From assembly GCA_016860985.1 (NCBI GenBank), contig BOKM01000001.1, positions 92,185 through 156,184 on the forward strand: DNA of 64,000 nucleotides, read 5' to 3'. The position numbers were made by a program, and so were the translations under genes. This DNA is from Patescibacteria group bacterium. GTDB taxonomy: Bacteria > Patescibacteriota > Dojkabacteria > GCA-002793355. Below, in pieces: positions 19,603 through 32,468 of this stretch. Below the pieces are notes generated by a model. It saw only the letters and a program-made list of their open reading frames with translations. It did not search any database and was not told where the DNA came from. The first letter of the stretch is position 1, and every line of letters begins with the position of its first letter.

Positions 19603-20097
19603 CTATATGTGCCCTGTTGCTTCAAGCATTCCGATGTATGCGATAGCAACAGCATCGGCAACATCATCAGTTTTGAATTTCTCTTCTATAGAAAAAAGTG
19701 AACTAATGGCTGCTTGCATCTCCTTTTTAGTTGCTTTACCTGTTCCCACAATTTTCTTTTTTAGTTGCATCGGATGCAATTCCCTAATTTCTAGATTTTC
19801 TAATGCAGTAGTAACCTTCAAAACTCCCCTTGCCTCTGCGATAAGCATTGCCGTCTTTGCATTAATTGAAAAAAATAGTTTTTCGATAAAAACAATATCC
19901 GGTGAATGTGTGTGAATAAGTTGCTGCAAATCGATTGCAATCTCGGCAAAGCGCGCCGCAGAATCTCTCGTTTTATCTGTGGTTATTAACCCGTAATGTA
20001 CAAGTTCTATTCCCTCATCGGTTTCTCGAATAATTGCCCACCCGAGGCGATCAATTCCTGGGTCAAGACCTAATACAATCATACTGCAGCATACCAA
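19603..20097 (-). CDS. ruvC: Crossover junction endodeoxyribonuclease RuvC; the probable start is the internal MIVLGLDPG, about nt 20082
   Basis: The catalytic motif MIVLGLDPGIDRLGWAII is present. The RuvC fold carries the acidic catalytic residues. Confidence 0.85.
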   Translation of the reverse strand: MVCCSMIVLGLDPGIDRLGWAIIRETDEGIELVHYGLITTDKTRDSAARFAEIAIDLQQLIHTHSPDIVFIEKLFFSINAKTAMLIAEARGVLKVTTALENLEIRELHPMQLKKKIVGTGKATKKEMQAAISSLFSIEEKFKTDDVADAVAIAYIGMLEATGHI

Positions 20098-20852
20098 ATA
20101 TGTTGAACATCTTGCTGATCGTCGAGGATACTCAAAAAAGATTCAAAACTACCCCATTTTTCATCTGCAAGAGTAATCGGTGTATTTGCTTCAAAGTGTT
20201 GTCCAGATCCAACTATGCTGTAACCGAGCTCGCGTATTCGTGAGGCAACCTGAGCAAGCCTATTCATTGGTACTTTTACCTGTAAAATGCTTTCTTCATC
20301 TGGATCTTCGGTGATATCTTCAATTTCTGGAACATCCATAAGCTCAAACGTAGCAGACTCTTTATCCACAGGAATTTCGGTATCCGATTCTCCAAACTTT
20401 TCTGCTGATTTTGTTTTAACACAACGTACCGTAACACGACCTGATTCAGTAAATTGCCACATTACGGCGCCAATTGAACCGAGTTCCCCTCCGGATTTCG
20501 AAAATATATTACGAATCTCATTAACTGTTCGATTTTTGTTATCAGTAATTGCAGAAACAACTACAGGAATTTTAAAAGGACCATATCCCTCGTACACTAC
20601 CTTTTCGAGTTGTGTAGTTGAGTCTTCGCCAGTTCCCTTTTTGATTGCTCTTTCGATATTGTCTTTTGGCATATTTACAGAGCGTGCATAGTCGACTGCG
20701 ATACGTAAGGTCAAATTGTGATTGGGATCGCCACCTCCATCACGTGCTGCGAGTATGATTTGCTGTGCAGCTTTAGTGAAAACCACTCCGCGTTTTGCGT
20801 CTGCCTTTCCCTTTGCTTGCTGAATGTTGTGCCAATGTGAATGTCCTGCCAT
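20079..20852 (-). CDS. yebC: YebC/PmpR-family transcriptional regulator
   Basis: The N-terminus reads MAGHSHWHNIQ..KGKADAKRG.VFTK. It lies upstream of ruvC, which is the conserved arrangement. Confidence 0.9.
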   Translation of the reverse strand: MAGHSHWHNIQQAKGKADAKRGVVFTKAAQQIILAARDGGGDPNHNLTLRIAVDYARSVNMPKDNIERAIKKGTGEDSTTQLEKVVYEGYGPFKIPVVVSAITDNKNRTVNEIRNIFSKSGGELGSIGAVMWQFTESGRVTVRCVKTKSAEKFGESDTEIPVDKESATFELMDVPEIEDITEDPDEESILQVKVPMNRLAQVASRIRELGYSIVGSGQHFEANTPITLADEKWGSFESFLSILDDQQDVQHIWYAAV

Positions 20853-20937: not shown

Positions 20938-22137
20938 GTGACTATAGAAACACTACTTTCGAGAGTTTCATTTGACCGAGACCCCATATCAGACACTAAA
21001 ATTGGTGAAACTGTTTATTATTCCGAAAACGCACATTTGCAAAAACTTGATATTTCACAAGGTGCTTGGAATCGCCCCAATTTGGAGCATTTCAAAGAGA
21101 CAGTACAAAGTGAACTTCGAAATCCCGCGAGTTCAGCAAATATTCGCCAGATTGCACTAACCCACGCGACACTATGGCACCAAGAATTGCAACTTGTTCA
21201 TGGTAAATCCGAAGAACAGGCACAAGAAATTACTAGAAAAGAGATTGAACGTGTAGCACTTCTTGCACAAGAAGTACCAGAGTTTAAGAACTTTTCTGAT
21301 GTGGTCTACGACTCAATGGAGTTTTATAGACAAAAGGAGGGACTTACCACCATTCCTGGTCTAACAAGCGAAAACGGAATACAAGCGACTAAAGAAGAAT
21401 TTGGTACGGATTTACTTTACGTTCTTCTTGTGGACTTAAGATTTAGAACTGGGAACGGAGATATTATTGGTTTAAATCATGACGCTGTAAAAGCACTAAG
21501 CACAGAAGATATTGAAGAAGCAAAACGTAGGCTTGTATCGATACTAGAACATGCAGACGAGAAAACCCAGGAAGCCTCATTTTCAATGCGACATATTCAC
21601 AAAACCATTCTTTCAACTCCAGACGAAGCAGACAATGCCTATTTAATTATGAGCCGGGCAGCAGCCAAAGCATACCATGGCGGCCCAGACACACTATTGC
21701 AGAATGTTAGGGCGATGTTTTGGTTTATTGCAAGTCACCTTGAAGGCGAGCAGGTACCAGAATTGACTTCTCTTCCGATGAAAGAAGAAAAAATTCCATT
21801 TGCCCCCCCACGAGAAGTTCCAAGATGGATAAAACGAATCACGAAACTAGCGGTACTCGGAAGCGGATACTATTTATGGCAGCAGGCACGAGATCTTAAC
21901 AATCGAATTATGGGCAATAACCACGAAGGGTGCGTGGTTTCAGGTATGGTACGTATAGAAAGAGTTACCTTTAACATCGGCACTTTTCTAACGGCATGGC
22001 ATTATGTAAGTAATGCACTCGCACGGATAGATGCTGCAAAAAACTACGAAGAATTCGCGAAGAGTGCTGCATTTTTCCCTGGCGCTGCACTACTTACTGC
22101 AATCGGAGAAACAATTGCATCAAAGGTCGAAGTTTAG
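20938..22137 (+). CDS. Hypothetical protein, paralog A of a tandem pair
   Basis: The N-terminal ~230 aa align to the N-terminus of the next ORF. No known motifs were found. Confidence 0.45.
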   Translation: MTIETLLSRVSFDRDPISDTKIGETVYYSENAHLQKLDISQGAWNRPNLEHFKETVQSELRNPASSANIRQIALTHATLWHQELQLVHGKSEEQAQEITRKEIERVALLAQEVPEFKNFSDVVYDSMEFYRQKEGLTTIPGLTSENGIQATKEEFGTDLLYVLLVDLRFRTGNGDIIGLNHDAVKALSTEDIEEAKRRLVSILEHADEKTQEASFSMRHIHKTILSTPDEADNAYLIMSRAAAKAYHGGPDTLLQNVRAMFWFIASHLEGEQVPELTSLPMKEEKIPFAPPREVPRWIKRITKLAVLGSGYYLWQQARDLNNRIMGNNHEGCVVSGMVRIERVTFNIGTFLTAWHYVSNALARIDAAKNYEEFAKSAAFFPGAALLTAIGETIASKVEV

Positions 22138-22210: not shown

Positions 22211-24193
22211 ATGTCCTATAATAAATTTTCTACTGTCAAAATGACAACTAGAGAGCCAGAAGCAAACGAATATGGAATGCAATTAGGTCGAACATATTTT
22301 GCACCTCGACCAAATGAAAAAGGTGCAATCACTTTTCACGCAGAAACTCTAAAAGATGGGGAATTCCTTTCACCTGAAGCAACAAAAGAAGGTCGAGAGG
22401 CAATTCACTCAGCGCTTACAAAAAAAGACAACGTTTCAACTCCAGAACTCGTCGCCTCACTCTACGCTATTCGTGTAAGTGAAATTCATAATCAAACAGG
22501 CGCAAACGAAGCTGAAGCACAAAAAATTGCCGACCGTGAAATTGAAATTGTAAACGAACTTGTAACGAACAACGAAGCGTTTAGAACAGCTACACAAGCA
22601 GCTTATGAAAAAATGCAGGCCGATGCAGCAGAAAAGGTAGCTTCAAAAAAGATTCCAGCATTAACAAAAACAAACGGTGAGGTCGCAAGTCTTGCGGAAT
22701 TTCAAGTCGATGTCGCTTATCTTATGTTGCAAGATCTTTCTCACAACGCATCCCAAGTAAATGCAAGAACCAGATTCACCGCAGTTGCAGCATTACAACC
22801 TGAACAAGATGCAGAAACGAGAGCAGACGCATTCAACGAATTGTTAACAACTGCAGCAGAAGAAGCCTCAAAGGCAACTCCTCTTGAAAAAGCAGACGAC
22901 TACAACCCGAATATTGATCAAGATCACACTACTGCATTCACAGTACTAAGTGCAGCAATGGCACGCGCTTATTCACGCCATGCATTTGCGCACAATGCAG
23001 GTGTCTCTTGGAATATTCTTCTAAAGAAAGAAGTTCTTGATAGGTTCCTAGAGAAAACCCCTGAAGATGATGGCAGTGGCACAAGTGAACCAGCACCGCA
23101 ACCAGGTGGTGAGCCAGGTCCAACTCCAGAACAACCTGCAGCAGACACGCCAGAAGCCGAATCAACCGAGCAAAAGAAACCATTCATGGAAGCATTAATC
23201 GATGGGCTTCGAGCAAATCACAGAGGTATTATCACAGCAGCAGCTATTTTGACTGCAGCCGGTGGTGCCGCATACGAAATTGGACGAAGAAGAGGGCAAA
23301 ATCCCGATAACAATGCAGTAGTCACTCGATTAATGCAAGCAGGAGCTTTTGCAGGTGTAGGACTTGCAGGTGGCTTAATTGCTCGAAATATCGCAAGAAA
23401 CCTTGACAATGCTTCCGACACAACAGAAGCAAACGAAACGAGAAGTACTCTCGCCTATGGATTAGGTGCGGCAGCAGTATTCTATGTTGCACAAGCACTT
23501 TACAGAAATCAAAGACGAGCAGCACGTAACACTGCTAGTGGCGAACCAGCAGCAGGTGAAGGTGAACCAATAAACCCTGATGCTCCAAATACTGTAAATA
23601 CTGGTATTGCTGCGTTAGATAGATTTATCAATGCAATACGTGCAAACGACAGAGCACTTTCTGAAAGAAAGCTTCAAAGAGATTTTAACCTTGAACTTCA
23701 AGGTGCAGAGAACACATCTAAAGCAAGGATTGAAGCTGTATTAAACGTTGTTGCAAAAACAAATGAAGTTGACGAACAAATCAGCATTGTCCGAACATTA
23801 TCAAGCAGTATTAAATCCTTCATGGGTAAAACCCTTAAAATCGAAGGAAAACCACTTGAATTAGTTGGAACAATGATTGACTTGGTACTCAGCGTTGGTC
23901 AAGCCAATGAAAGAATCGAAAACAAGGGTGCGGATATCCTTGGTGTTTTGAAGGTGTTGGACGACATGAGTGTTGCACAAACAGGGGCAGAACGAATTCA
24001 ATCAATTGTGAAAGAAATTGGTAATTGGTTATTCGTTGATCCAAAGAAACAGCTTGAAGAGCAAGCAGCTCATAATGCTCGAATTCAAGAAATGATTAAG
24101 GAATTCGAGGAAGCAAACCTTTATCCTGAACAGCAAGCTATGAACAGAGATGGTAGCGGCACTCCCGCACCAGAACCAGTGGCAGCGACATAG
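22211..24193 (+). CDS. Hypothetical protein, paralog B, with a Pro-rich linker, three Gly/Ala-rich amphipathic or TM segments, and a C-terminal coiled-coil region
   Basis: Its N-terminus is homologous to the preceding ORF (EAEAQKIADREIEIVNEL vs EEQAQEITRKEIERVALL; IPALTKTNGEVASLAEFQVDV vs IPGLTSENGIQATKEEFGTDL). Confidence 0.45.
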   Translation: MSYNKFSTVKMTTREPEANEYGMQLGRTYFAPRPNEKGAITFHAETLKDGEFLSPEATKEGREAIHSALTKKDNVSTPELVASLYAIRVSEIHNQTGANEAEAQKIADREIEIVNELVTNNEAFRTATQAAYEKMQADAAEKVASKKIPALTKTNGEVASLAEFQVDVAYLMLQDLSHNASQVNARTRFTAVAALQPEQDAETRADAFNELLTTAAEEASKATPLEKADDYNPNIDQDHTTAFTVLSAAMARAYSRHAFAHNAGVSWNILLKKEVLDRFLEKTPEDDGSGTSEPAPQPGGEPGPTPEQPAADTPEAESTEQKKPFMEALIDGLRANHRGIITAAAILTAAGGAAYEIGRRRGQNPDNNAVVTRLMQAGAFAGVGLAGGLIARNIARNLDNASDTTEANETRSTLAYGLGAAAVFYVAQALYRNQRRAARNTASGEPAAGEGEPINPDAPNTVNTGIAALDRFINAIRANDRALSERKLQRDFNLELQGAENTSKARIEAVLNVVAKTNEVDEQISIVRTLSSSIKSFMGKTLKIEGKPLELVGTMIDLVLSVGQANERIENKGADILGVLKVLDDMSVAQTGAERIQSIVKEIGNWLFVDPKKQLEEQAAHNARIQEMIKEFEEANLYPEQQAMNRDGSGTPAPEPVAAT

Positions 24194-24237: not shown

Positions 24238-24271
24238 GAAAAGAGGCCAGCTTTCGCTGGCCTCTTTTTTT
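24238..24271. terminator. Strong bidirectional rho-independent terminator
   Basis: A perfect 9-bp stem (gaggccagc / gctggcctc) has a 4-nt loop. It carries a T7 run 3' on the plus strand and an A-run 5', which gives a U-run on the minus strand. Confidence 0.7.
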
Positions 24272-24363: not shown

Positions 24364-26790
24364 TTACTCCCCCTTATTTTCTACCCACCTCTGGATCTTT
24401 TCTTCTATCACATCTCGGGGAACAGCATACTTTTCACGTGATTTCTGTTTAATAATGTCTTTGTACCCAAAAGGTTGATACCTAAAGGGCATAGATACTG
24501 CGCTAAATGGCTCTGAAATACGGTCATTAATCGTCATTCGAAGATAAAGGTGGTAATTCGGCAAAGATAGAATATCTTCAGGGGTCACATACGGCGCAAA
24601 TTCTTGCGAAAGTACCATCGCGTCTTTTTGGCTAACGCTAAAGGTAATCATTGTACCAACATTACCAAAAATACCCGCTCGCATTTCAATGGGGAGTTGT
24701 TCGGTAAATTGATGGTTAATTACCAAAGACAAACGATATTTTCGCGCCTCGGAAAGGATATTCACAAACGCATCGGTCGTAAAGCTTTGCACCTCATCTA
24801 TATACAAACTAAAGTCGTTGCGTTCGTCATCGGGCATGTCTACCCTTTCCATTGCTGCGGTGTAAATACGAGCAATGAGCAAACCTCCAAGAAGTGACGT
24901 ATTTTCTTCGCCGATTCGACCTTTCGAGAGATTGGCTATAAAGATCTTTTTGCTGTCAATCATTTCTCGTATATTAAAGGTCGATTTTGTTTGACCAAGA
25001 ATATTTCGTGTAATACGTGGAGAAAGATAACGGCCGATTTTGTTTTGAATTGGCGCTACAGTATCCGAAAGAAGCTTTCTGTTTTCTTCAATCATGCTGA
25101 ATTCTTCTCTCCAAAAGCGAAGAATCATTGGATCTTTTACGTGCGACAAAACTCTTCGCCTATATTCTCCATCCGTTAACATGCGCTGAACAGAAAGGAG
25201 TGTTGTCCCTTGAGAATCGAGTGCAGAAAGAATTGTATTGTAAAGAATATACTCTAAACGTGGCCCCCATGAATCAAAGTACTTTTTAAACACGCCAATA
25301 ATATTGTCTGCAACTAAGTCGCGCTGTGACTTATCTTTAACGTATATTGGGTTAAAACCGACTGGATATTCAACATCTCCAGGGTTAAAGTAAATGACAT
25401 CATCAACACGATGCGCAGGAATGTGATCGAGAATAAACTCAGCTGTTTCTCCGTGTGGATCGATAAGTCCAACACCTTCGCCTGCCATAATATCCGAAAC
25501 AATCATATTTCGCATAAGAACCGTTTTACCAGTACCTGTACGACCAATAATGTATGCATGGCGACGTTTATCATTCTTTTTTATGCCAAACATCTGACTT
25601 TCACCACGGTAATTTGTTTTTGCGATTATCGTGCCTTCGTCGATTGGGAGATCTACAGGTGGTGGTAACTTTCCTGCTGTTGTTACAAACAATGACGTTG
25701 CTCCGCCGGTTGTATTCGGCAGATGGTACAACGATGCGATTTCTTCAATATTAAGAATCTCTGGGTGCTGCAAACTCAAGTAACGCTCCTTCATATGAGT
25801 AAATACTTGCAACGGCGCTTTTGCAAGGTGAAGGGAGAAAGCATTTAAGTGTGCGGTTGCATATTGCCTAAAAGAGGCAGCAATCCCTTCAAATATCTGA
25901 ACTGCTCTAGTTGGTTCACTACTTTTCGCTAATATTCTAATTGAAACCTGAAATCCTTGTTTTTCTGCCTTTGCCTCAACTCGCTTAATTTCTTCTTCTT
26001 GATATGGTTCGAGACGTACAGTAGGTGCTTTTGGCTGTTGCTGAGGTTTTGTTGGATCATAGGTTAATGAATCAAAAAAATATCGAAAGAATCCTGAAAT
26101 AACACCCCAAAACGCCTTCCAAAATCCCCCACTTTTATCAAATATATTACTACCCTCAGCTCTCAGTGCAGAAATATACTTTTGCGAAACCTTTTGCCAC
26201 AGGTTTGGGTACGGTCGAATAGTAAACTGAATCCACGCTTCTTCGTCGCCGTGTAACTCGCTAATTGCACCAGTAATGCCAGAAAGGGGGTCGACATCAA
26301 AATCCTTAAAGGTTTTTAAAGGGAAAATATGTTCTCGTTCAAGAATAATTTCGCCGGCAGAAACCTGAACCGTAGAATCCCACATTGTGGCTGTATCCAT
26401 ATAATCGGGAATAACAGAAATTTCTGCTGCCGGGTACTGTGCGTACACCTGCCCTTTTACAAACGATGCAATTTCTTCGTTCACAATAATAAAAAACTGT
26501 ACTCCTACTTTTGAGTTCGCAGCCAGCTCGAGTGAAAGCATTGGTACTGTGGCTGTTTCCTTGTATAACCCATGTAAAGAGGCAAACAGCTGCTCAGCTG
26601 CAAGTGGCGTTTTATCGTTATTACGTGGAACTGCAATTTTAAGTACTACTTTTTTATTTCCGAGTAATTTTTCTTCTGCACCACTTGGAAAGGCTTCATC
26701 CCCCTTCTTTTTTGTTGCAAAAAGAGCAATCACCAGTACAAACAATATAACAACGAGAAGTATGAGAAGAAGGACTAAACCGAGATTCAT
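24364..26790 (-). CDS. Membrane-anchored P-loop ATPase of the VirB4/TraG-VirD4/FtsK-HerA clade
   Basis: There is an N-terminal TM. Walker A (YIIGRTGTGKTVLM) lies at about aa 420 and Walker B (FSLYIDEVQSF) at about aa 655. The clade-typical ARKYRLSLVINHQ motif follows. Confidence 0.55.
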   Translation of the reverse strand: MNLGLVLLLILLVVILFVLVIALFATKKKGDEAFPSGAEEKLLGNKKVVLKIAVPRNNDKTPLAAEQLFASLHGLYKETATVPMLSLELAANSKVGVQFFIIVNEEIASFVKGQVYAQYPAAEISVIPDYMDTATMWDSTVQVSAGEIILEREHIFPLKTFKDFDVDPLSGITGAISELHGDEEAWIQFTIRPYPNLWQKVSQKYISALRAEGSNIFDKSGGFWKAFWGVISGFFRYFFDSLTYDPTKPQQQPKAPTVRLEPYQEEEIKRVEAKAEKQGFQVSIRILAKSSEPTRAVQIFEGIAASFRQYATAHLNAFSLHLAKAPLQVFTHMKERYLSLQHPEILNIEEIASLYHLPNTTGGATSLFVTTAGKLPPPVDLPIDEGTIIAKTNYRGESQMFGIKKNDKRRHAYIIGRTGTGKTVLMRNMIVSDIMAGEGVGLIDPHGETAEFILDHIPAHRVDDVIYFNPGDVEYPVGFNPIYVKDKSQRDLVADNIIGVFKKYFDSWGPRLEYILYNTILSALDSQGTTLLSVQRMLTDGEYRRRVLSHVKDPMILRFWREEFSMIEENRKLLSDTVAPIQNKIGRYLSPRITRNILGQTKSTFNIREMIDSKKIFIANLSKGRIGEENTSLLGGLLIARIYTAAMERVDMPDDERNDFSLYIDEVQSFTTDAFVNILSEARKYRLSLVINHQFTEQLPIEMRAGIFGNVGTMITFSVSQKDAMVLSQEFAPYVTPEDILSLPNYHLYLRMTINDRISEPFSAVSMPFRYQPFGYKDIIKQKSREKYAVPRDVIEEKIQRWVENKGE

Positions 26791-26801
26791 GCTATGACAT
26801 T

Positions 26802-27818
26802 CTACCTGTTAAGTAAAAATACTACAATATCGCCTGTTGTAACGATTCCGGGAGGTCGGCCGACTCGAATTTCGACTCTTCCTTCTGCAAACGAACTTTT
26901 AATCATTGCGAGTGTTCTGGAATACGATGTTTCGTTTTTTACATAAATAACCGCCATTTTATCTTGCAGAGGTTCATGAGTCGCATTTCCGACCCTTGAA
27001 ATATCAATACCCAACATTGCCCACTTTCTTGAGAAGATGCTTGCATAACCTTCTATCACGGTTGCGTTGTAGACTTCAACAAAAGCTTGTTCCTGAGCAA
27101 TATCAGAAATTTCAAAAAAGGCAGGGAACTGCTCTTTGAACGCATCAAACGTGATAACAGCGACTTCTGAACTATCGTCTAATTCGCGTATCTGAAGTAA
27201 TGCACTATTAAAGCGTTTCTTATCTCCCTTTTCGACGAGTGAAAGAATTTCCTGCGTTTCTGCAACAGTAAGTGAAGAGCTTAGTCCAGCTTCTTTATCT
27301 TCTACAATAACATACTCGATAGGAATACCGCTGGTTAACGCCAATTGCTCAAGTACATAGCAATAGTTTACCTCTCCGGTTTCTAAACGACTTAATCGAA
27401 CAAATTCACCGACTTGAGTCGACGTAAAGTTTTTTGAAAAATAGACTGGTACCCAATCCTTTTCTCTTAACTCAATAGACTTTAGGCCACTTACCCCACT
27501 AGGCGCAGTTAAGAACAGTTCTTGAACCTCTGCTCCAGAAGTTTTAAACACCACTCCGTACATTGGTTTTGCCTTTACAGAAAGAAACGTTGCATCGCAA
27601 GCAGAAAAGAGTTGTGCGTTTGGCTTATAGGATTCTGAAATTAACTTGTAGATGTACTGCCAACCGAGCAAAACTACAGCAACAATAATACTAACAGCGA
27701 ACGCAAGTTGTAAGGCTTTAATGAGAAAAGAATACACAGACGGAGAAATCGAAAGCTTTGGCTTTACCTTGGGCTTTTGCTTCATTACATTGTGACCGGC
27801 GCGACGTGGGGGCATCAC
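26802..27818 (-). CDS. Membrane-anchored extracytoplasmic protein in the dcw neighbourhood; possibly an FtsQ/DivIB-like or LytR-like accessory protein
   Basis: It has a single N-terminal TM and an alpha/beta ectodomain of about 280 aa. It sits between mraY and the ATPase. No motif was recognised. Confidence 0.35.
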   Translation of the reverse strand: MMPPRRAGHNVMKQKPKVKPKLSISPSVYSFLIKALQLAFAVSIIVAVVLLGWQYIYKLISESYKPNAQLFSACDATFLSVKAKPMYGVVFKTSGAEVQELFLTAPSGVSGLKSIELREKDWVPVYFSKNFTSTQVGEFVRLSRLETGEVNYCYVLEQLALTSGIPIEYVIVEDKEAGLSSSLTVAETQEILSLVEKGDKKRFNSALLQIRELDDSSEVAVITFDAFKEQFPAFFEISDIAQEQAFVEVYNATVIEGYASIFSRKWAMLGIDISRVGNATHEPLQDKMAVIYVKNETSYSRTLAMIKSSFAEGRVEIRVGRPPGIVTTGDIVVFLLNR

Positions 27819-27852: not shown

Positions 27853-28956
27853 CTAACCAAAATACACTTGTGCCAAGATTGCTAGAAAAACAATACCGAG
27901 ATTGAATAGCCAGAACCGCATAACGACTTTTGGTCCAGGCCACCCCAAGGCCTCAAAATGATGGTGAACTGGTGCTATTTTGAAAATCTTTCGTTTTAAG
28001 AAGCGGATCGATAGGAGCTGTATTGTGCTTGTTGCTAAGTCAAATAAGTACGGAAGCATTAAGACAATGAGGGCTGGTAAGAGGTTACCGTACAAACCAA
28101 GCAATAGAAATACTGGTCCCATAGGCATCGCCCCTGGGGCACCCATATAAAATCGTGCAGGTGGAATATTAAAATACAAGTACACGATTAATACACCAAG
28201 CAGCACACCTACTACCGCAAGCGCAGTTGTATTTGGAGACGTAAAGAAGTTTGCAGGGTACGCAAGCATCAAAAGGGTAAAACCGAGTAACGTAATTATA
28301 TACATTCCCGAAGAAAGCCCATCAATTCCATCGATAATTTCGGTCGCATATGAAAAGAACGTTGAAACGATTGCCAATCCCACAATACCCAGAACAGAGT
28401 TTAACTGAAGCGAGAGTCCAAGTAAGTCTACTGATTTTATTCCTGCAACATGAACGATAAGCAATGCAACTCCAACATTTACGGCCATCGAAACTAGTAA
28501 TTTTCCGACTCGCCACTCGAATTTATTCTGAAACTCACGAAAAGCAACGTTATTCTTTGTTACTACATCTAAAATAGCATCGACCATTCCATATAATCCA
28601 ACAAGAAGCATGATTAAGGCAGCGGCTTTTATAAGCGGAATGTGCCAGAAGGCAAGCAACAAAACTGCTGGAACCGTAAGCCAAATCAAAATACCACCAT
28701 TGCTTGGTGTCCCCGAATCTTTCGCGTGGATTTTCATCCATTCTTCGTTTGCCTTACTAGGCATTGCAATATGCTTAATTGTGAATTGAAGCTTATAAAG
28801 CATATTTATGAGAGGAACAACCCAAAGTCCGGCCGAAACCGCGCCGATAACAACCCACAGTGCGACTTCTTTGACCATGAAGAATGAGATTGAGGTAAGC
28901 ATATTTTGTGTATTATTTAATTCTTGGTACGCCAAGATCGTCTTTGATTGTATCAA
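27853..28956 (-). CDS. mraY: Phospho-N-acetylmuramoyl-pentapeptide transferase
   Basis: The MraY motifs DGIDGLSSG and KIAPVHHHFEALGWPGPKVVMRFW are present. Confidence 0.9.
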   Translation of the reverse strand: MIQSKTILAYQELNNTQNMLTSISFFMVKEVALWVVIGAVSAGLWVVPLINMLYKLQFTIKHIAMPSKANEEWMKIHAKDSGTPSNGGILIWLTVPAVLLLAFWHIPLIKAAALIMLLVGLYGMVDAILDVVTKNNVAFREFQNKFEWRVGKLLVSMAVNVGVALLIVHVAGIKSVDLLGLSLQLNSVLGIVGLAIVSTFFSYATEIIDGIDGLSSGMYIITLLGFTLLMLAYPANFFTSPNTTALAVVGVLLGVLIVYLYFNIPPARFYMGAPGAMPMGPVFLLLGLYGNLLPALIVLMLPYLFDLATSTIQLLSIRFLKRKIFKIAPVHHHFEALGWPGPKVVMRFWLFNLGIVFLAILAQVYFG

Positions 28957-30649
28957 ATATTTTCATCCATAGGGGAAGTACCGTTAAGTTCGCTAAATCG
29001 CCCTTTCTTGGATTTTCAATTTTTACTAACATAATAAAGCGAGCATCTATGGCCGGAGAAAAACCAACGAAGGTTACATTTACTCTATCCTCGTAATAAC
29101 CGGACGTATCTGCTCGTGCGACCTGGGCTGTACCAGTTTTACCGGCTATACTGTATACACCTTTATATTTTGCCATATCTTTGCGAGTAAATGTTGCATA
29201 TTCCATCATTTTTGCTACTTTATCTGCAGTTTCAGGTGTAAATATTTGGCCCGCACTTGAGGGCTTAATAATGATTTCCTCTTCGTTGTTATATATCTTT
29301 TTTACAAGCATTGGCTGCATTCGTTCCCCATGATTTGCAAGAGCAGAAAGTGCCGATGCCACCTGCAATGGCGTTGCTGAAATTGCTTGACCATACGAAG
29401 TAGTTGCAATATCGATTTTTAACCACTTATCTGGTGTCTTGAGAAAACTGGTTTCCTCTTCGTGAATGCCGATACTAGAAGAAGCACCAATCCCCAATTT
29501 AAGTAGGTAATCGTACATTGAAGCTGCACCAACTGACAACCCATACGTTGCAGCACAAATGTTATCAGAATACTGAAGAGTTTCTTTTGGCGTTATCTTT
29601 CCATACTTAACGAAGTTAAAGTTGTAGATTGTCTTATCATCCATTTTTAACTTTCCAGTATCGTTACAAATATCATCTTCATCTAGTTTTCCATCGTCCA
29701 TTGCCATTGCAATGGTAAGTGGTTTTTGTACTGACCCATATTCATACGGACTCGAAACAACCTTGTTGCGAAAAACCGATACATTCTTAATCTTCCAGAA
29801 CTCATTAGGGTCATAATCAGGATAATTAGCCATTGCGATTATCTCACCCGTTTTTGGTGCAAGAATTATCACACTTCCCGCATCTGCTCGCTGCTCTTGC
29901 ACGCCTTCTTCGAGTAATTTTTCAACCTTTTTCTGAATTCCTGAGTTGACAGTTAGAACAATGTTTTTACCTTCACGGTATTGAACGTTTTTGTATTGCT
30001 TACTGATAATCGCCTTTCCACTTAAATCTTTTTCCTGCTGACTTGCACCTTCTTTCCCTTTTATATCACCCCAAAAAAAGCCTTCAATTCCATAATTACC
30101 TTTTGGCCGCCCGAAACTGTCTGTACCCACATACCCAATAATATGTGAAAACAGCTCACCATTCGGATACAACCTCTTTATTGAGTCCTCGGTATATACT
30201 CCAAGTAGCTTTTTTTCTTCCAAAATTTCTCGTTGCCGCTTATTAATTCCTCGATAGATAACTTGGTAGGTTAACCTATTATCGTTAAATCCCGAAGTTA
30301 ATTCTTCGACCTCTACATCAAGCACGGACGAAATTTCTTGAAAAATTGTAGCTTTTTCCTTTAAAAATTTTGCCTGATCAACTCCATTTGTTAATGAAAT
30401 TATCACATTCCAAGAAGGGCTATCGACCGCAAGCACAACACCATCTTGAGTATAGATGGTACCTCGTTTGGTAAACACGTCCTGTTCTGAGTTTAACTGT
30501 GCAGAGGCAAGCGCACTAAAGCGCTCGTAACTACCTACCTGCCAGCGAAATAACTGAACCACAACAAGGAGAAACAACAAAACGATTGAACCAAAAACAA
30601 AAGTCGGAAAATCAATTCTTTTACTAGTAGGAACTTTTTTATTATTCAT
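28913..30649 (-). CDS. ftsI: Class B penicillin-binding protein (FtsI/PBP2-type transpeptidase)
   Basis: An N-terminal TM is present. The transpeptidase motifs are SVQKP (S-x-x-K), YSDN (S-x-N-like) and KTGTA. Confidence 0.85.
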   Translation of the reverse strand: MNNKKVPTSKRIDFPTFVFGSIVLLFLLVVVQLFRWQVGSYERFSALASAQLNSEQDVFTKRGTIYTQDGVVLAVDSPSWNVIISLTNGVDQAKFLKEKATIFQEISSVLDVEVEELTSGFNDNRLTYQVIYRGINKRQREILEEKKLLGVYTEDSIKRLYPNGELFSHIIGYVGTDSFGRPKGNYGIEGFFWGDIKGKEGASQQEKDLSGKAIISKQYKNVQYREGKNIVLTVNSGIQKKVEKLLEEGVQEQRADAGSVIILAPKTGEIIAMANYPDYDPNEFWKIKNVSVFRNKVVSSPYEYGSVQKPLTIAMAMDDGKLDEDDICNDTGKLKMDDKTIYNFNFVKYGKITPKETLQYSDNICAATYGLSVGAASMYDYLLKLGIGASSSIGIHEEETSFLKTPDKWLKIDIATTSYGQAISATPLQVASALSALANHGERMQPMLVKKIYNNEEEIIIKPSSAGQIFTPETADKVAKMMEYATFTRKDMAKYKGVYSIAGKTGTAQVARADTSGYYEDRVNVTFVGFSPAIDARFIMLVKIENPRKGDLANLTVLPLWMKIFDTIKDDLGVPRIK

Positions 30650-30983
30650 TGCTACTAATTACTTGAGAACCTGGATTCACATACAACACTTTGCTTGGCG
30701 ACGTGACATACCCAGCTGCTCTTTCGGCGACCAAAAACTTACTAGAACGAAGTATAGCATTTTGCTCTTCATAATCTAGATAAGTTGTATTGAGCATTCT
30801 ACTTTGAGAATCCATTACACCTACCATTTGGGCAACAGGTTCATAACGCGCAGCTACTACGAATTGAGTCAACACAAGTGCACATGTGAGAAGAAATGCA
30901 GTTACATTGAAAATGTTTGATGAATTCGTCTTTGAGATATTACTTTGCATGTTTGATTGTGTACAATTTAGCACTTCGCGCAC
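30642..30983 (-). CDS. ftsL: FtsL-like small bitopic division protein
   Basis: The gene sits between rsmH and ftsI. It has a single TM and a short ectodomain. Confidence 0.45.
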   Translation of the reverse strand: MREVLNCTQSNMQSNISKTNSSNIFNVTAFLLTCALVLTQFVVAARYEPVAQMVGVMDSQSRMLNTTYLDYEEQNAILRSSKFLVAERAAGYVTSPSKVLYVNPGSQVISSNE

Positions 30984-31911
30984 GTGGATTTACGCGTATT
31001 TCTTTGGCAGAAGGCAGAATGATCTCTGCTTTTGCTCTTACTGTTTGCAAAAAATGATTAACAACTTGCTCCTCGGCACTGTGGTACGTCATAACCAGAA
31101 GTACACCACCAGGTAACAAGCGAGAAAATGCGACTGGGAGGACTTCCTGCAAGTTCCGTAACTCTGTATTCACTGCGATACGCAGAGCAAGAAACAGCAA
31201 GGTTGCGGGATGAATCCTCCCTTTTGAGTTAGCTCGTATTGGGACTACTTTATAAGCAATATCCGTAAGTCTCTTAATATCATTCGAATTGCCAAAGGCC
31301 TTCTCTGTTCTTGCGTTTAAAATTTCATGTGTCAGCTTTGCCGCCAGAGGACCTGGCATTCCGACAGTGTCCCTAAATAAGGAGGCCATTTTCTTATAGG
31401 TAAGAAGGTTCAATAAATCATAAGCAGCTACAGCATACAAATCTGGGCTCATTCGCATATCTACTTTACCGCTTCCCGTAAAACTAAATCCTCTTTGTTT
31501 TTGTACAAGCTGTCGTGATGAAATACCGAGATCTAACAACATTGCAGCTATTGAATTACCGTAGCCAGTTTTTTTGGAAATTGAATCTAATATCTGCGGT
31601 AGGTGCGCAAAATTGTCTTTCGCAACAATCCACTTTGTGCTTGAATCAGCAGACTCTAATAGTGTTGGTGCGGTTTTTCCTTGAGTTTGGAATGCTTCAA
31701 GTCCAGAAAAGTCCCAATCGATACTCAATAGTCTATTTGCATCAAAAGCATTCACTCGTTTTTCAAATATTGCAGAAGAATGTCCACCGTCACCAAAGGT
31801 TCCATCAACGATCCATCCTTGTTTAGGGGCGACGGCAATTTCATCCAGCGTTTCCTGCAACAAAACTGGCTTGTGATATATTTTTTTGGCTGCAGATACA
31901 GTTGTATTCAT
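30940..31911 (-). CDS. rsmH: 16S rRNA (cytosine1402-N4)-methyltransferase RsmH/MraW
   Basis: The motifs HKPVLLQETLD and VDGTFGDGGHS are present. Confidence 0.9.
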   Translation of the reverse strand: MNTTVSAAKKIYHKPVLLQETLDEIAVAPKQGWIVDGTFGDGGHSSAIFEKRVNAFDANRLLSIDWDFSGLEAFQTQGKTAPTLLESADSSTKWIVAKDNFAHLPQILDSISKKTGYGNSIAAMLLDLGISSRQLVQKQRGFSFTGSGKVDMRMSPDLYAVAAYDLLNLLTYKKMASLFRDTVGMPGPLAAKLTHEILNARTEKAFGNSNDIKRLTDIAYKVVPIRANSKGRIHPATLLFLALRIAVNTELRNLQEVLPVAFSRLLPGGVLLVMTYHSAEEQVVNHFLQTVRAKAEIILPSAKEIRVNPRARSAKLYTIKHAK

Positions 31912-31912
31912 G

Positions 31913-32392
31913 TTACGATGATTCCTTTACTGAAATAAGCTCCTGTGCAATGCCATCGGCATTTTCTTCAAGATATGCAGCGCGTTCGTCCCATCGGTTT
32001 TTCTCCCACACTTCGACCCAATTCACGAGGCCGACAAAGACAACTTCCTTTTCTTTTCTGTCAGAATATACCGTATCAGCATATTTTCTAAGAGTTTCAG
32101 GTACAACAATTCGGCCTTGAGAATCTGACGACATCTCGAATGCGCTACCTACAAGAAAACGTAGTGACTCTCGAGCATTTCTATCCAAGAATGAGCGATT
32201 CTCCATAGGTTCAATAAGTTTTTCCCACGACTGCTCTGGGACAATAAGCAAACAACCTTCATACCCTTTGGTTACGACGAACTTATCACCAAGCTTTTTT
32301 CTTAAATACGAAGGAAGTGCAATTCGATGACCTGCTACAACTTTTCCCGTGTACTCTCCAATGAGTTTTGCAGATTCACCAGTTTTCACCAT
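31913..32392 (-). CDS. mraZ: Transcriptional regulator MraZ
   Basis: The two MraZ half-domains are present (GEYTGKVVAGHRIALP...). It is the first gene of the dcw cluster. Confidence 0.85.
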   Translation of the reverse strand: MVKTGESAKLIGEYTGKVVAGHRIALPSYLRKKLGDKFVVTKGYEGCLLIVPEQSWEKLIEPMENRSFLDRNARESLRFLVGSAFEMSSDSQGRIVVPETLRKYADTVYSDRKEKEVVFVGLVNWVEVWEKNRWDERAAYLEENADGIAQELISVKESS

Positions 32393-32468
32393 ACTTCACC
32401 ATTGTAACTCGATTTTTATTGTTTGTAAAGTACTTATTCGCTCAAAATACAATAAAAAGTGAAGAATT

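Follow-up and report, generated by a model that had tools for sequence, protein, structure and literature searches.

[quoted passage not shown] It belongs to a near-universal, already catalogued core family of the CPR/Patescibacteria and descends from coupling proteins of Gram-positive DNA-transfer machines. As for its present role, we put at about even the chances that it is an accessory motor at the membrane, a former coupling protein of the T4SS superfamily of P-loop ATPases that acts together with the chromosomal T4SS of the CPR.

Domain architecture of the ATPase

The ORF list agrees with the earlier note in placing the 808-aa frame behind mraY and a gene for a 338-aa bitopic protein. The exact sequence is present on 4–5 contigs from several samples; it encodes a genuine protein that is under strong selection. 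The identical protein P0001 bears PF26449 (DUF8128), PF10412 and PF01935, and the AF2 model of the full-length chain has a mean pLDDT of 79.9. One strong transmembrane (TM) helix lies at the N-terminus (aa 3–25, LGLVLLLILLVVILFVLVIALFA; 26716..26784, minus strand), is modelled as a helix over the same residues and is followed by TKKK, which under the positive-inside rule would leave the N-terminus outside and most of the chain on the cytoplasmic side.

The N-terminal domain (NTD), previously described as unknown, corresponds to DUF8128 (aa ~45–385; 25636..26658, minus strand) according to Pfam (PF26449), and its predicted fold is like that of the VirB4/TrwK NTD. Modelled alone with AF2 (pLDDT 80.8, pTM 0.77), it folds into two alpha/beta subdomains of ferredoxin-like type, with an amphipathic insertion at aa ~218–254 that is poorly ordered. 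Foldseek searches of the PDB matched it to TrwK/VirB4 only (E 1.2e-6 to 4e-5, TMq 0.41–0.45), the next matches being unrelated (E ≥ 6e-3). The domain occurs in 1,763 cluster representatives, always in N-terminal position, and stands as its own ORF in 15 loci, where the natural split falls at aa ~385; this splitting of the ATPase gene at the domain boundary is seen in Parcubacteria-type loci.

The nucleotide-binding domain of T4CP type that follows (aa ~395–770; 24481..25608, minus strand) is supported by Pfam, PADLOC and Foldseek, and the three motifs noticed earlier could all be located in it on the minus strand. In the Walker A motif GRTGTGKT (aa 416–423; 25522..25545), G416, G419, G421 and K422 are invariant (alignment A1), as are D665 and E666 in the Walker B motif LYIDEVQSF (aa 662–670; 24781..24807), which aligns with the Walker B motif of TrwB, and R683, K684 and Q694 in ARKYRLSLVINHQ (aa 682–694; 24709..24747). 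The last of these pairs in the alignment with TrwB GRKAGLRVVAGLQ and, judging by this pairing, would act as the Arg/Gln sensor-type motif of T4SS ATPases. An all-alpha insertion (aa ~487–598; 24997..25332, minus strand) with seven helices in the model (H487–598) separates Walker A from Walker B. It corresponds to the all-alpha domain of TrwB, and the Pfam TrwB_AAD_bind match runs across it. The chain ends in a two-helix tail (aa 775–808; 24367..24468, minus strand), recognized from the alignment and the model, with a conserved SRxKY..PR..IE.KI.RW pattern, and this tail is a candidate for binding a partner.

The suggested placement in the VirB4/VirD4/FtsK-HerA clade was right and can be sharpened to a T4CP-like motor. 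Among the Pfam models searched, TrwB_AAD_bind (31.9 bits against a gathering threshold of 20.5, 8.4e-8, aa 403–723) and DUF87 (5.9e-6) pass their thresholds, while FtsK_SpoIIIE (19 bits against 24, P-loop only) and AAA_10 (18.7 bits against 27.5) fail and CagE_TrbE_VirB does not match the protein at all. The NCBIfam VirD4/TraD models remain far under their own cut-offs. Foldseek aligns the motor with TrwB (1e9r/1gl6) at TMt 0.55–0.61 and an rmsd of ~5 Å, and the nucleotide-binding domain, all-alpha insert, Walker A/B and RK..Q motifs are co-linear with those of TrwB/VirD4 (PDB 1E9R, 1GKI; PF10412, PF02534). Canonical T4CPs, however, have a short N-terminus with two TM helices and lack the ~340-aa VirB4-NTD-like domain, in place of which the ATPase carries one TM helix and DUF8128. 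Its two-domain layout of NTD and ATPase is shared with VirB4/TrwK (R388; PDB 7O41–7O43, 8RTB, 8RTD), the best, co-linear Foldseek match of the full-length model (E 3e-11), and the TM helix ahead of the N-domain recalls the VirB3–VirB4 fusions known from the literature. By sequence, on the other hand, the protein is not a member of VirB4 (AAA_10 as above; TIGR00929, 12 bits against a cut-off of 643), and its motor is nearer to the T4CPs.

Relatives on mobile elements and ancestry

The same combination of a DUF8128-like N-domain and an ATPase occurs in proteins of Bacillus and Embleya plasmids and of the phages SPO1 and G ("DUF87 / T4SS DNA-transfer family"), which share 23–28% identity with the CPR ATPase across 82–91% of the length. 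An HMM built on CPR N-domains only detects these plasmid and phage relatives by their N-termini (7e-36 to 4e-11) and matches neither VirB4s nor PcfC. The plasmid relatives adjoin Replic_Relax (PF13814, the MOB_C relaxase class), TcpE/PrgI and VirB4-like genes, as well as NlpC/P60 in Embleya, and fill the coupling-protein slot of conjugation operons. The SPO1 relative (gp27.4) overlaps a Replic_Relax gene of MOB_C type, and that of phage G (gp156) comes after TrbL/VirB6-like and VirB4-like genes. The mobile-element proteins occur together with a separate VirB4, evolve fast and are embedded in gene sets that are conjugation-type or T4SS-like, whereas the CPR genes have no such partners nearby; most of them also lack the N-terminal TM anchor of the CPR ATPase.

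A phylogeny, proposed as a check in the earlier note, was computed as an NJ tree. It recovers the CPR clade (75/100) and joins it with the mobile-element two-domain family (79/100), so that the 808-aa protein groups with T4CP-like plasmid proteins, FtsK being the outgroup; a grouping with PcfC of pCF10 is found in 12/100 only. The distant relatives are coupling proteins from monoderm modules for conjugation with MOB_C (Replic_Relax) relaxases. In the CPR ancestor the relaxase was probably lost and the gene settled on the chromosome, where it is inherited vertically and belongs to the strongly conserved core; CPR genomes have about two T4CP-like genes each, of which it is one.

These relationships also bear on whether the gene encodes a HerA/mad8-like anti-phage defence ATPase or is integrated mobile-element cargo. 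PADLOC mad8 (1e-14) and HerA models match the ATPase domain, PHROG phrog_5156 matches the protein over its full length (9e-79), and relatives exist in phages and on plasmids. Yet the defence models cover the generic ATPase core alone, inheritance across the CPR is vertical with phylum-congruent clades and short branches, and base composition is flat. The flanks are housekeeping genes, without nuclease, methylase or relaxase partners, and the only integrase is encoded by the gene of a chromosomal Xer-type recombinase, which Dojkabacteria have ~4 kb downstream. We consider defence or cargo very unlikely.

Gene order in the window and across the CPR

In the window, the ATPase gene closes a truncated dcw block (27853..32392, minus strand; ORFs and Pfam) that comprises, all on the minus strand, mraZ (31913–32392), rsmH (30940–31911), a 113-aa ORF in ftsL position without a Pfam match (30642–30983), ftsI (28913–30649) and an mraY-like gene (27853–28956). 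The absence of murD, ftsW, murG and ftsQ behind mraY had been remarked on before, and the scanned window ORFs included none of the four. After a gap of 34 nt the mraY-like gene is followed by that of the 338-aa protein (26802..27818, minus strand; ORF list), which ends 11 nt upstream of the ATPase gene. From a promoter-like site (10/12) at 32429–32401 down to the ATPase only weak terminator-like matches occur, and the dcw block and the 338-aa/ATPase pair probably form one transcription unit. A strong, bidirectional intrinsic-terminator-like hairpin (24239..24268; 13-bp stem, 7 GC pairs) lies ~100 nt past the ATPase stop codon, between convergent genes.

The 338-aa protein has a basic cytoplasmic N-terminus, one TM helix (aa 27–45) and an extracytoplasmic body whose C-terminal part matches LytR_C weakly (E 0.02); homologs from other Dojkabacteria reach 2.8e-8. 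The protein shows no relationship to those in the FtsQ position. A member of its family lies directly upstream of the ATPase in 14 loci, and Dojkabacteria conserve this LytR_C-type protein as the partner in front of the ATPase. The family evolves fast, with 28 homologs and 50–58% identity where the ATPase holds 76–84%.

The host belongs to the Dojkabacteria (WS6) within the CPR, and the closest named relatives of the 808-aa protein are likewise Candidatus Dojkabacteria and not Saccharibacteria. There are >2,134 homologs and at least 597 species-level genome matches, and full-length orthologs span the CPR phyla at 35–48% identity. The ATPase scores 0.66 bits per residue where FtsI, MraY and RsmH have 0.24–0.33, roughly double the conservation of FtsI or MraY. 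In published surveys, 2,918 of 3,035 Patescibacteria genomes have T4CP homologs and 2,417 have VirB4, with just 148 of the 5,713 T4CP homologs near virB4, and orphan T4CP homologs in Patescibacteria have been listed by Wang et al. 2023 (PMC10633639) and Quinonero-Coronel et al. 2025 (PMC12102498).

The position at the distal end of the dcw cluster, correctly described for the window, is not general. The order in other Dojkabacteria is rluD, LytR_C protein, ATPase, yebC and ruvCAB, so that adjacency to mraY is not conserved even within this group; it is a lineage-specific, local rearrangement that moved the LytR_C/ATPase pair behind mraY. The ATPase, yebC, ruvC, ruvA, ruvB and the Xer-type recombinase gene form a tight block in Dojkabacteria, with gaps of 37–68 nt to yebC in five loci. 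In the window, these conserved downstream neighbours (yebC 20079–20852 and ruvC 19603–20097, together 19603..20852, minus strand) have been pushed away by two inserted plus-strand genes. Two neighbouring genes without known function (399 and 660 aa) were found in the closest relatives of the window alone and are therefore not conserved candidate substrates. Saccharibacteria loci have the order dprA, topA, HTH protein and ATPase, convergent with the genes of the ftsQ position, murG, ftsW, mraY and ftsI; in Doudnabacteria the ATPase lies upstream of mraY, with the dcw genes downstream. Proximity to dcw genes is absent in Gracilibacteria, Peregrinibacteria, most Parcubacteria and most of the Dojkabacteria sampled.

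The place at the end of a division operon had prompted the proposal of an unusual FtsK, i.e. a divergent FtsK/SpoIIIE that joined the division cluster as the organism's division DNA translocase. FtsK/SpoIIIE are likewise membrane-anchored motors of the ASCE (FtsK-HerA) superfamily, and probes with the E. coli FtsK motor found no FtsK in the window. Against this, FtsK_SpoIIIE matches below threshold and on the P-loop only, Pfam detects no 4TM, alpha or gamma domain, no FtsK structure is among the top 50 Foldseek matches, FtsK falls outside in the tree, and adjacency to dcw genes is not kept within Dojkabacteria. Southlakia epibionticum ML1, a saccharibacterium, moreover has both a canonical essential FtsK (PF13491, PF17854, PF01580, PF09397) and an ATPase ortholog. 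The FtsK identity is thus largely refuted, and we regard it as the least probable reading.

Candidate roles and the ML1 ortholog

The ML1 ortholog, assigned by architecture and synteny rather than by sequence alignment, is the orphan T4CP SEML1_0293, marked in the literature as a core, Patescibacteria-enriched family. Its PF10412 match starts at aa ~402 (403 in the 808-aa protein), and it is likewise chromosomal, far from virB4 and without a relaxase. It differs in length (921 against 808 aa in Dojkabacteria), in its upstream partner (a Sigma70_r4 and HARE-HTH protein instead of a LytR_C bitopic protein) and in its setting, behind dprA and topA as in the other Saccharibacteria loci. In published Tn-seq data it scored non-essential (NE) at all passages, with normalised reads dropping ~4-fold over the passages, while the T4SS genes of the VirB4 region (SEML1_0005–0019) scored essential (ES) and a second T4CP-like protein, SEML1_0142, is essential, so that any T4SS role of SEML1_0293 would not lie in the essential function.

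A T4SS energiser engaged in host interaction, as the earlier note envisaged, is plausible by ancestry. The scanned window ORFs and the stretches within ~8 kb of 86 related loci, however, contained no VirB4, VirB6, relaxase or other T4SS partner gene, and the rarity of T4CP homologs near virB4 points the same way. VirD4-type proteins serve in many systems to recruit protein effectors, and the ATPase could be a true coupling protein that delivers host-interaction effectors and is required for epibiotic parasitism. The T4CP-type motor with its VirB4-like N-domain and the widespread CPR T4SS, essential in ML1, would fit such a role. The missing genomic linkage, the Tn-seq contrast with SEML1_0005–0019 and SEML1_0142, and the restriction of the 399- and 660-aa neighbours to the closest relatives make it rather improbable.

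Somewhat more credible, though still doubtful, is a T4SS-independent housekeeping motor, an exapted coupling protein handling chromosomal or incoming DNA at the membrane, for example in accessory DNA clearance or segregation at division, as with the soluble SftA that works beside SpoIIIE in Bacillus, in assisting dimer or Holliday-junction resolution, or as the cytoplasmic motor that ComEC-dependent uptake of DNA lacks. Consistent with such a role are the three arrangements near dcw genes, the block with yebC, ruvCAB and the recombinase gene, dprA and topA upstream in Saccharibacteria, the occurrence of T4CP homologs in more genomes than VirB4, and conservation above FtsI or MraY. ML1 carries ComEC, ComFC and DprA with ComFA not annotated, its comEC lies directly upstream of yebC, and the NE scores of SEML1_0293 and comEC would suit an accessory DNA role. 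But the case is one of guilt by association throughout, the blocks dprA-topA and yebC-ruvCAB are each conserved on their own account, dcw nearness is missing in most lineages sampled, and ML1 already has its FtsK. The phenotypes also differ, comEC mutant reads staying flat while those of SEML1_0293 fall.

Under the preferred reading, an accessory motor alongside the chromosomal T4SS, the ATPase would be a membrane-tethered P-loop motor of the VirB4/VirD4 superfamily, probably hexameric, with the single TM helix holding DUF8128 at the inner membrane face and the coupling-protein-type motor, its catalytic motifs intact, behind it. ATP would drive the engagement and feeding of a macromolecular substrate at the membrane, with DNA as the leading candidate because of the neighbouring ruvCAB and Xer-type recombinase genes in Dojkabacteria and dprA-topA in Saccharibacteria. 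The ATPase, dispensable in the laboratory, would probably work with a T4SS encoded elsewhere on the chromosome, and is apparently co-transcribed here with the LytR_C-type protein at the tail of the truncated mraZ–mraY operon.

Gene pair and probable transcription unit

Both open reading frames (ORFs) that the earlier note had placed behind mraY were recovered by the ORF calls, namely an 808-aa membrane-anchored ATPase (24364-26790, minus strand) and a 338-aa bitopic LytR_C-like protein (26802-27818, minus strand), and the motifs GRTGTGKT (aa 416-423), LYIDEVQSF (aa 662-670), and ARKYRLSLVINHQ (aa 682-694) were confirmed in the ATPase. The two ORFs are 11 nt apart, and the 338-aa ORF lies 34 nt downstream of the mraY-like gene of a truncated dcw cluster (27853-32392, minus strand) in which ORF calls and Pfam identified only mraZ, rsmH, a 113-aa ORF, ftsI, and this mraY-like gene. 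The 113-aa ORF occupies the ftsL position and has no Pfam match; since the mraY-like protein matches Glycos_transf_4 only (4e-12), its identity as MraY follows mainly from its position. The genes that the earlier note would expect here in a standard dcw cluster, murD, ftsW, murG, and ftsQ, were not detected in the ORFs scanned across the 64-kb window, and neither were a component of a type IV secretion system (T4SS) or FtsK. Housekeeping genes (e.g., pheST, gatB, trigger factor, obg, and a class II aminoacyl-tRNA synthetase) surround the pair, and the base composition of the window is flat.

The ATPase has a single strong N-terminal transmembrane (TM) helix (aa 3-25) followed by TKKK, so that, by the positive-inside rule, the remainder of the protein is predicted to be cytoplasmic. 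The basic N-terminus and single TM helix (aa 27-45) of the 338-aa partner would place the bulk of that protein outside the cytoplasm. About 100 nt past the stop codon of the ATPase gene, a near-perfect 13-bp GC-rich stem with A and T runs on both sides (24239-24268) separates it from a convergent gene for a 660-aa protein, and from its sequence this hairpin looks like a bidirectional terminator common to both genes. Because of this hairpin and a best promoter-like site (10/12) located upstream of mraZ, the ATPase and its partner are probably encoded at the tail of the mraZ-mraY transcription unit.

Two plus-strand genes converge on the ATPase gene, one for a 399-aa protein (20938-22137) and one for the 660-aa protein (22211-24193), which has a Pro/Glu-rich linker. 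Neither product has a Pfam match, both contain hydrophobic stretches as judged by eye, and they are paralogous over an N-terminal region of ~95 aa (33% identity, E 3e-9). Within the set of loci examined, these genes are restricted to the closest relatives of the window (L001 and L002), where they break an otherwise conserved order of ATPase, yebC, and ruvC.

A coupling-protein-type motor joined to DUF8128

Of the broad VirB4/VirD4/FtsK affinity that the earlier note had read from the motifs, Pfam bore out the coupling-protein side: the C-terminal half passed the thresholds of TrwB_AAD_bind (31.9 bits against 20.5, aa 403-723) and DUF87, CagE_TrbE_VirB gave no match above threshold, and FtsK_SpoIIIE, AAA_10, P-loop_TraG, and TraG-D_C stayed below theirs, the FtsK_SpoIIIE and AAA_10 matches spanning little beyond the P-loop region. 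The NCBIfam models for VirD4, TraD, and VirB4 were likewise far under their cut-offs. In alignment, the motor is co-linear with TrwB, a type IV coupling protein (T4CP), from Walker B through the RK..Q motif. A full-length AF2 model of the monomer, built from 22 homologs (mean pLDDT 79.9), has a RecA-like core interrupted by an insertion of seven helices (aa 487-598), the counterpart of the TrwB all-alpha domain. The top Foldseek match of this model in the PDB is TrwK/VirB4 (E 3e-11), co-linear over >900 alignment columns, followed by TrwB (TMt 0.55-0.61, rmsd ~5 Å) and then by HerA, DotL, and Cag-beta.

The alternative that the ATPase is an unusual FtsK-like translocase, raised in the earlier note, did not survive this comparison. 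The match to the FtsK_SpoIIIE motor model (PF01580) reached 19.0 bits against a threshold of 24 and covered aa 395-433 only, the models PF17854, PF09397, and PF13491 were unmatched, and one TM helix is present instead of a multi-TM N-terminus. No FtsK chain appeared among the top 50 PDB matches of the full-length model. In addition, a canonical FtsK with four TM helices and alpha, motor, and gamma domains (SEML1_0096, scored GD at P0 and then essential by Tn-seq; Wang et al. 2023, PMC10633639, Table S1) coexists with the ortholog of the ATPase in the saccharibacterium Southlakia epibionticum ML1. The ATPase is thus not FtsK. A probe made from the Escherichia coli FtsK motor, used to look for a separate FtsK, had no match in the 64-kb window or in any of the loci compared. 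Assignment to HerA, as in HerA-NurA or defence systems, was also rejected: DUF87 passes, but HerA_C scored 13 bits against a threshold of 22, a partner nuclease gene was not found nearby, and HerA structures are weaker fold matches than TrwB or VirB4.

The N-terminal region that had been left unassigned, ~340 aa in length, corresponds to Pfam PF26449 (DUF8128) in the precomputed annotation of an identical database protein (P0001), which also carries PF10412 and PF01935, both of them above threshold in our own Pfam scan as well. With an N-terminal DUF8128 and a T4CP/DUF87-type ATPase, the protein has the layout of a DUF8128-T4CP-like family (PF26449 + PF10412/PF01935). It shares with T4CPs the nucleotide-binding domain, Walker A and B, and the inserted all-alpha domain, but T4CPs have a short N-terminus with typically two TM helices, whereas here one TM helix precedes a globular DUF8128. 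It differs from VirB4 in lacking sequence membership (AAA_10, 18.7 bits against 27.5; TIGR00929, 12.1 against 643). We regard it as settled, from sequence features, that the ATPase belongs to a distinct two-domain family of the T4SS superfamily, in which DUF8128 is joined to a T4CP-type motor predicted to be catalytically intact.

When modeled separately (pLDDT 80.8, pTM 0.77), the N-terminal domain forms two alpha/beta units of ferredoxin-like type, with an amphipathic insertion that is disordered. Its leading Foldseek matches are VirB4/TrwK chains only (E 1.2e-6 to 4e-5, probability 1.0, TMq 0.41-0.45), and the next ones are unrelated ferredoxin-like or FAD-oxidase folds (E ≥ 6e-3). As no RecA-like ATPases are among these matches, the match must be to the N-terminal domain (NTD) of VirB4. 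At the sequence level, a profile of 23 N-terminal domains found nothing among PDB sequences; Pfam at E ≤ 10 on the same 23 domains returned chance matches or spill-over from the ATPase only, without CagE_TrbE_VirB; and when family profiles were compared by hhalign with the individual PrgJ and PcfC sequences of pCF10, no more than a short segment near Walker B was aligned, an uninformative result. Since the likeness is thus one of modeled structure, we consider it probable, and not proven, that DUF8128 is VirB4-NTD-like.

The N-terminal domain, searched against 1.8 billion cluster representatives, returned 1,763 proteins, all with the domain at the N-terminus, in two size classes of ~800-1,100 aa and ~410-500 aa. 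In 15 Parcubacteria-type loci (L036, L041, L045, L048, L063, L070, L073, L075, and L080-L086), the gene is split cleanly at query position ~385, at the same domain boundary in all, into an ORF for the TM helix and DUF8128 (317-493 aa, one cut at a contig end) and an ATPase ORF (500-756 aa), spaced by at most ~55 nt and mostly ≤30 nt. The N-terminal domain is an independent module.

Conservation in CPR bacteria and relatives on plasmids and phages

The exact ATPase sequence is present on several metagenomic contigs, and its best named relatives belong to Candidatus Dojkabacteria (WS6) rather than to Saccharibacteria. When one genome was scanned for each species, at least 597 confirmed matches were obtained, the best 80 of which are full-length orthologs (35-48% identity over ~95% of the length) from Dojkabacteria, Saccharibacteria, Gracilibacteria, Peregrinibacteria, Peribacteria, Nomurabacteria, Buchananbacteria, Magasanikbacteria, Uhrbacteria, Falkowbacteria, Doudnabacteria, and Liptonbacteria. 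Between the window and 17 Saccharibacteria loci, the ATPase scored 0.66 bits per residue compared with 0.33 for FtsI, 0.25 for MraY, and 0.24 for RsmH, which places it among the better conserved proteins of these genomes. By full-length orthology and synteny, the protein belongs to a DUF8128-T4CP-like orthologous group of the CPR, and its gene is a vertically inherited CPR core gene.

De novo clustering of all ORFs of 86 loci showed that the adjacency to mraY is not conserved among orthologs, since other Dojkabacteria, Saccharibacteria, and Parcubacteria types are ordered differently. The Dojkabacteria block consists of rluD, the LytR_C bitopic gene, the ATPase, yebC, ruvC, ruvA, ruvB, a gene of unknown function, and a Xer-type recombinase gene. 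In the sub-lineage of the window (L001-L003), the LytR_C-like and ATPase pair stands behind mraY instead of at its usual Dojkabacteria place, and the plus-strand genes for the 399-aa and 660-aa proteins were acquired between the ATPase and yebC-ruvC; the position after mraY is a local rearrangement. Saccharibacteria have the order der, pth, dprA, topA, a gene for a Sigma70_r4 + HARE-HTH protein, and the ATPase, the last convergent with the ftsQ-position, murG, ftsW, mraY, ftsI, and rsmH genes. Parcubacteria types have secD, secF, sometimes the HTH protein, and then DUF8128 and ATPase, and in Doudnabacteria mraY and ftsW lie downstream of the ATPase. The dcw genes thus recur close to the ATPase gene in three arrangements that differ from one another, a suggestive pattern though not a compelling one. 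The neighborhoods formed by ruvCAB and the Xer-type recombinase gene, by dprA-topA, and by dcw genes, together with the near-universality of the family, suggest that the ATPase could be a T4SS-independent DNA motor involved in uptake, segregation, or recombination.

The HTH protein is encoded directly upstream in 40 of the 83 gene copies with upstream sequence, and the LytR_C family in 14 of the 83, all of the Dojkabacteria type. The former (cluster c2, 40 loci, e.g., L029:3008-4069) is a protein of ~350 aa with Sigma70 region 4, HARE-HTH, and winged-helix repeats that is annotated "RpoS"; it is the conserved upstream neighbor outside Dojkabacteria, and no member of its family was found in the window. 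The 338-aa partner evolves fast (50-58% identity where the ATPase retains 76-84%). Its reading as a divergent FtsQ was rejected, as hhalign against the FtsQ-position families showed no relation.

Outside the CPR, the PHROG family phrog_5156 matches the ATPase end to end (9e-79), and tblastn detected full-length phage relatives, namely gp156 of Bacillus phage G, with 25% identity over 91% (E 1e-54), and gp27.4 of SPO1-like phages. Relatives were also detected on 350 plasmid records from Streptomyces/Embleya, Bacillus, Staphylococcus, haloarchaea, and others, 17 of which have a single match covering ≥80% of the query. An HMM built from CPR N-terminal domains only matched the N-termini of five plasmid or phage proteins (7e-36 to 4e-11) and matched neither VirB4s nor PcfC of pCF10. 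On two Bacillus subtilis plasmids and one Embleya plasmid, the relative adjoins a gene for Replic_Relax (PF13814, the MOB_C relaxase class), and the same three plasmids carry TcpE/PrgI (VirB3-like) and VirB4-like ATPase genes, with further genes annotated for conjugal transfer on the two from Bacillus and a gene for an NlpC/P60 hydrolase on the one from Embleya. On these three plasmids, the relative occupies the coupling-protein slot of a monoderm conjugation operon. Classification of the Bacillus plasmids as pLS20-like was rejected, as pLS20 encodes a canonical two-TM VirD4 as its T4CP and a relaxase from another family. In SPO1 (L088, gp27.9-gp27.3), an Alp7A-type actin gene is followed, a few genes later, by the gene of the relative, which overlaps a Replic_Relax gene, and in phage G (L089, gp153-gp156), TrbL/VirB6-like and VirB4-like genes precede the DUF8128-ATPase gene; these lytic Bacillus phages thus carry T4SS-like modules.

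In a rough tree of the motor domain (bootstrapped neighbor joining, Kimura distances, 374 columns), the CPR proteins form a short-branched clade (75/100), which joins the two-domain proteins of plasmids and phages (79/100); PcfC, the VirB4s, and the FtsK outgroup lie outside this grouping. The CPR loci differ from T4CP loci in that linkage to relaxase and mating-pair-formation genes is confined to the distant relatives on plasmids and phages: genes for Replic_Relax, VirB4, VirB6, and VirB3 were detected neither in the window ORFs scanned nor within ~8 kb of the gene in the 86 loci. The DUF8128-ATPase family probably descended from coupling proteins of MOB_C-type monoderm conjugation modules.

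Four genomes (L012, L015, L016, and L068) have tandem paralogs of the two-domain ATPase within ~4 kb, and in the tree the upstream copies branch early within the CPR as a subclade of their own; they may represent a second T4CP-like type per genome, similar to SEML1_0142 of ML1, a T4CP-like protein essential by Tn-seq (PMC10633639). A typical CPR copy was also found in two bins with other labels, L058 ("Chlamydiae bacterium") and L069 ("Bulleidia sp."), the latter with the Saccharibacteria-type synteny of pth, dprA, topA, HTH protein, and ATPase; both probably reflect contamination or mislabeling.

Possible functions and significance

At the membrane, the ATPase probably still acts as a motor that uses ATP for coupling or translocation. 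We slightly prefer the reading that it feeds a CPR T4SS over that of a T4SS-independent motor. Among 3,035 Patescibacteria genomes, VirB4 was reported in 2,417 and a total of 5,713 VirD4-type T4CP homologs in 2,918, with 148 of the 5,713 near virB4; relaxases were rare, MOB_C being the commonest, and the authors noted that the t4cp of ML1 is non-essential and that exaptation "cannot be ruled out" (Quinonero-Coronel et al. 2025, PMC12102498).

The ortholog in ML1, assigned by architecture and synteny, is SEML1_0293 (921 aa, PF10412 at 402-719), a member of a Patescibacteria-enriched core family that was scored NE at all three passages (PMC10633639), and its context (dprA, topA, HTH protein) matches the Saccharibacteria loci analyzed here. 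The upstream HTH protein, SEML1_0294, is essential by Tn-seq, unlike the adjoining ATPase (PMC10633639). The ML1 data make an essential role in host interaction, towards which the earlier note had pointed, unlikely for this paralog. SEML1_0293 mutants of this one tractable species are viable, yet the normalized reads for the gene fell ~4-fold over the passages (5817, 2940, and 1372), with flat counts for neighboring non-essential genes (PMC10633639).

A more specific scenario, which we regard as rather doubtful, is that a conjugative coupling ATPase was domesticated in the CPR common ancestor and became a universal, vertically inherited housekeeping DNA motor without conjugation. In ML1, ComEC, ComFC, and DprA are present, and ComFA and ComEA are not annotated (PMC10633639); under such domestication, the ATPase might import scavenged DNA together with ComEC in place of the missing ComFA or, alternatively, might work beside FtsK on chromosomal DNA at the site of division. 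The VirB4-like N-terminal domain, a separate protein in Parcubacteria, would then serve as a membrane or partner docking module.

The CPR/Patescibacteria, most of them uncultured, form a very large radiation of bacteria with tiny genomes, and a gene kept by almost all of them and more conserved than FtsI or MraY likely matters to their biology. It probably derives from DNA-transfer machinery and now occurs without a relaxase and apart from T4SS genes, and knowing its cargo (DNA in, DNA out, or proteins) would bear on how these obligate epibionts acquire nucleotides and genes and interact with their hosts. The family is already in Pfam, has been flagged as a CPR core family, and has been discussed as an orphan T4CP. 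No papers on "DUF8128" turned up in a literature search, and we found no published description of the VirB4-NTD-like nature of the domain, the way the gene is naturally split in Parcubacteria, the link to phage homologs and to coupling proteins associated with MOB_C, or the conserved partners (the HTH protein or, in Dojkabacteria, the LytR_C protein). These points make a known open question easier to test and reveal no new kind of system; they give DUF8128 a structural interpretation and avert two annotation errors, i.e., naming the ATPase FtsK and taking it as evidence for a local T4SS.

As a separate observation, comEC of ML1 lies directly upstream of yebC (SEML1_0776/0777; PMC10633639), the place that the ATPase gene holds in Dojkabacteria.
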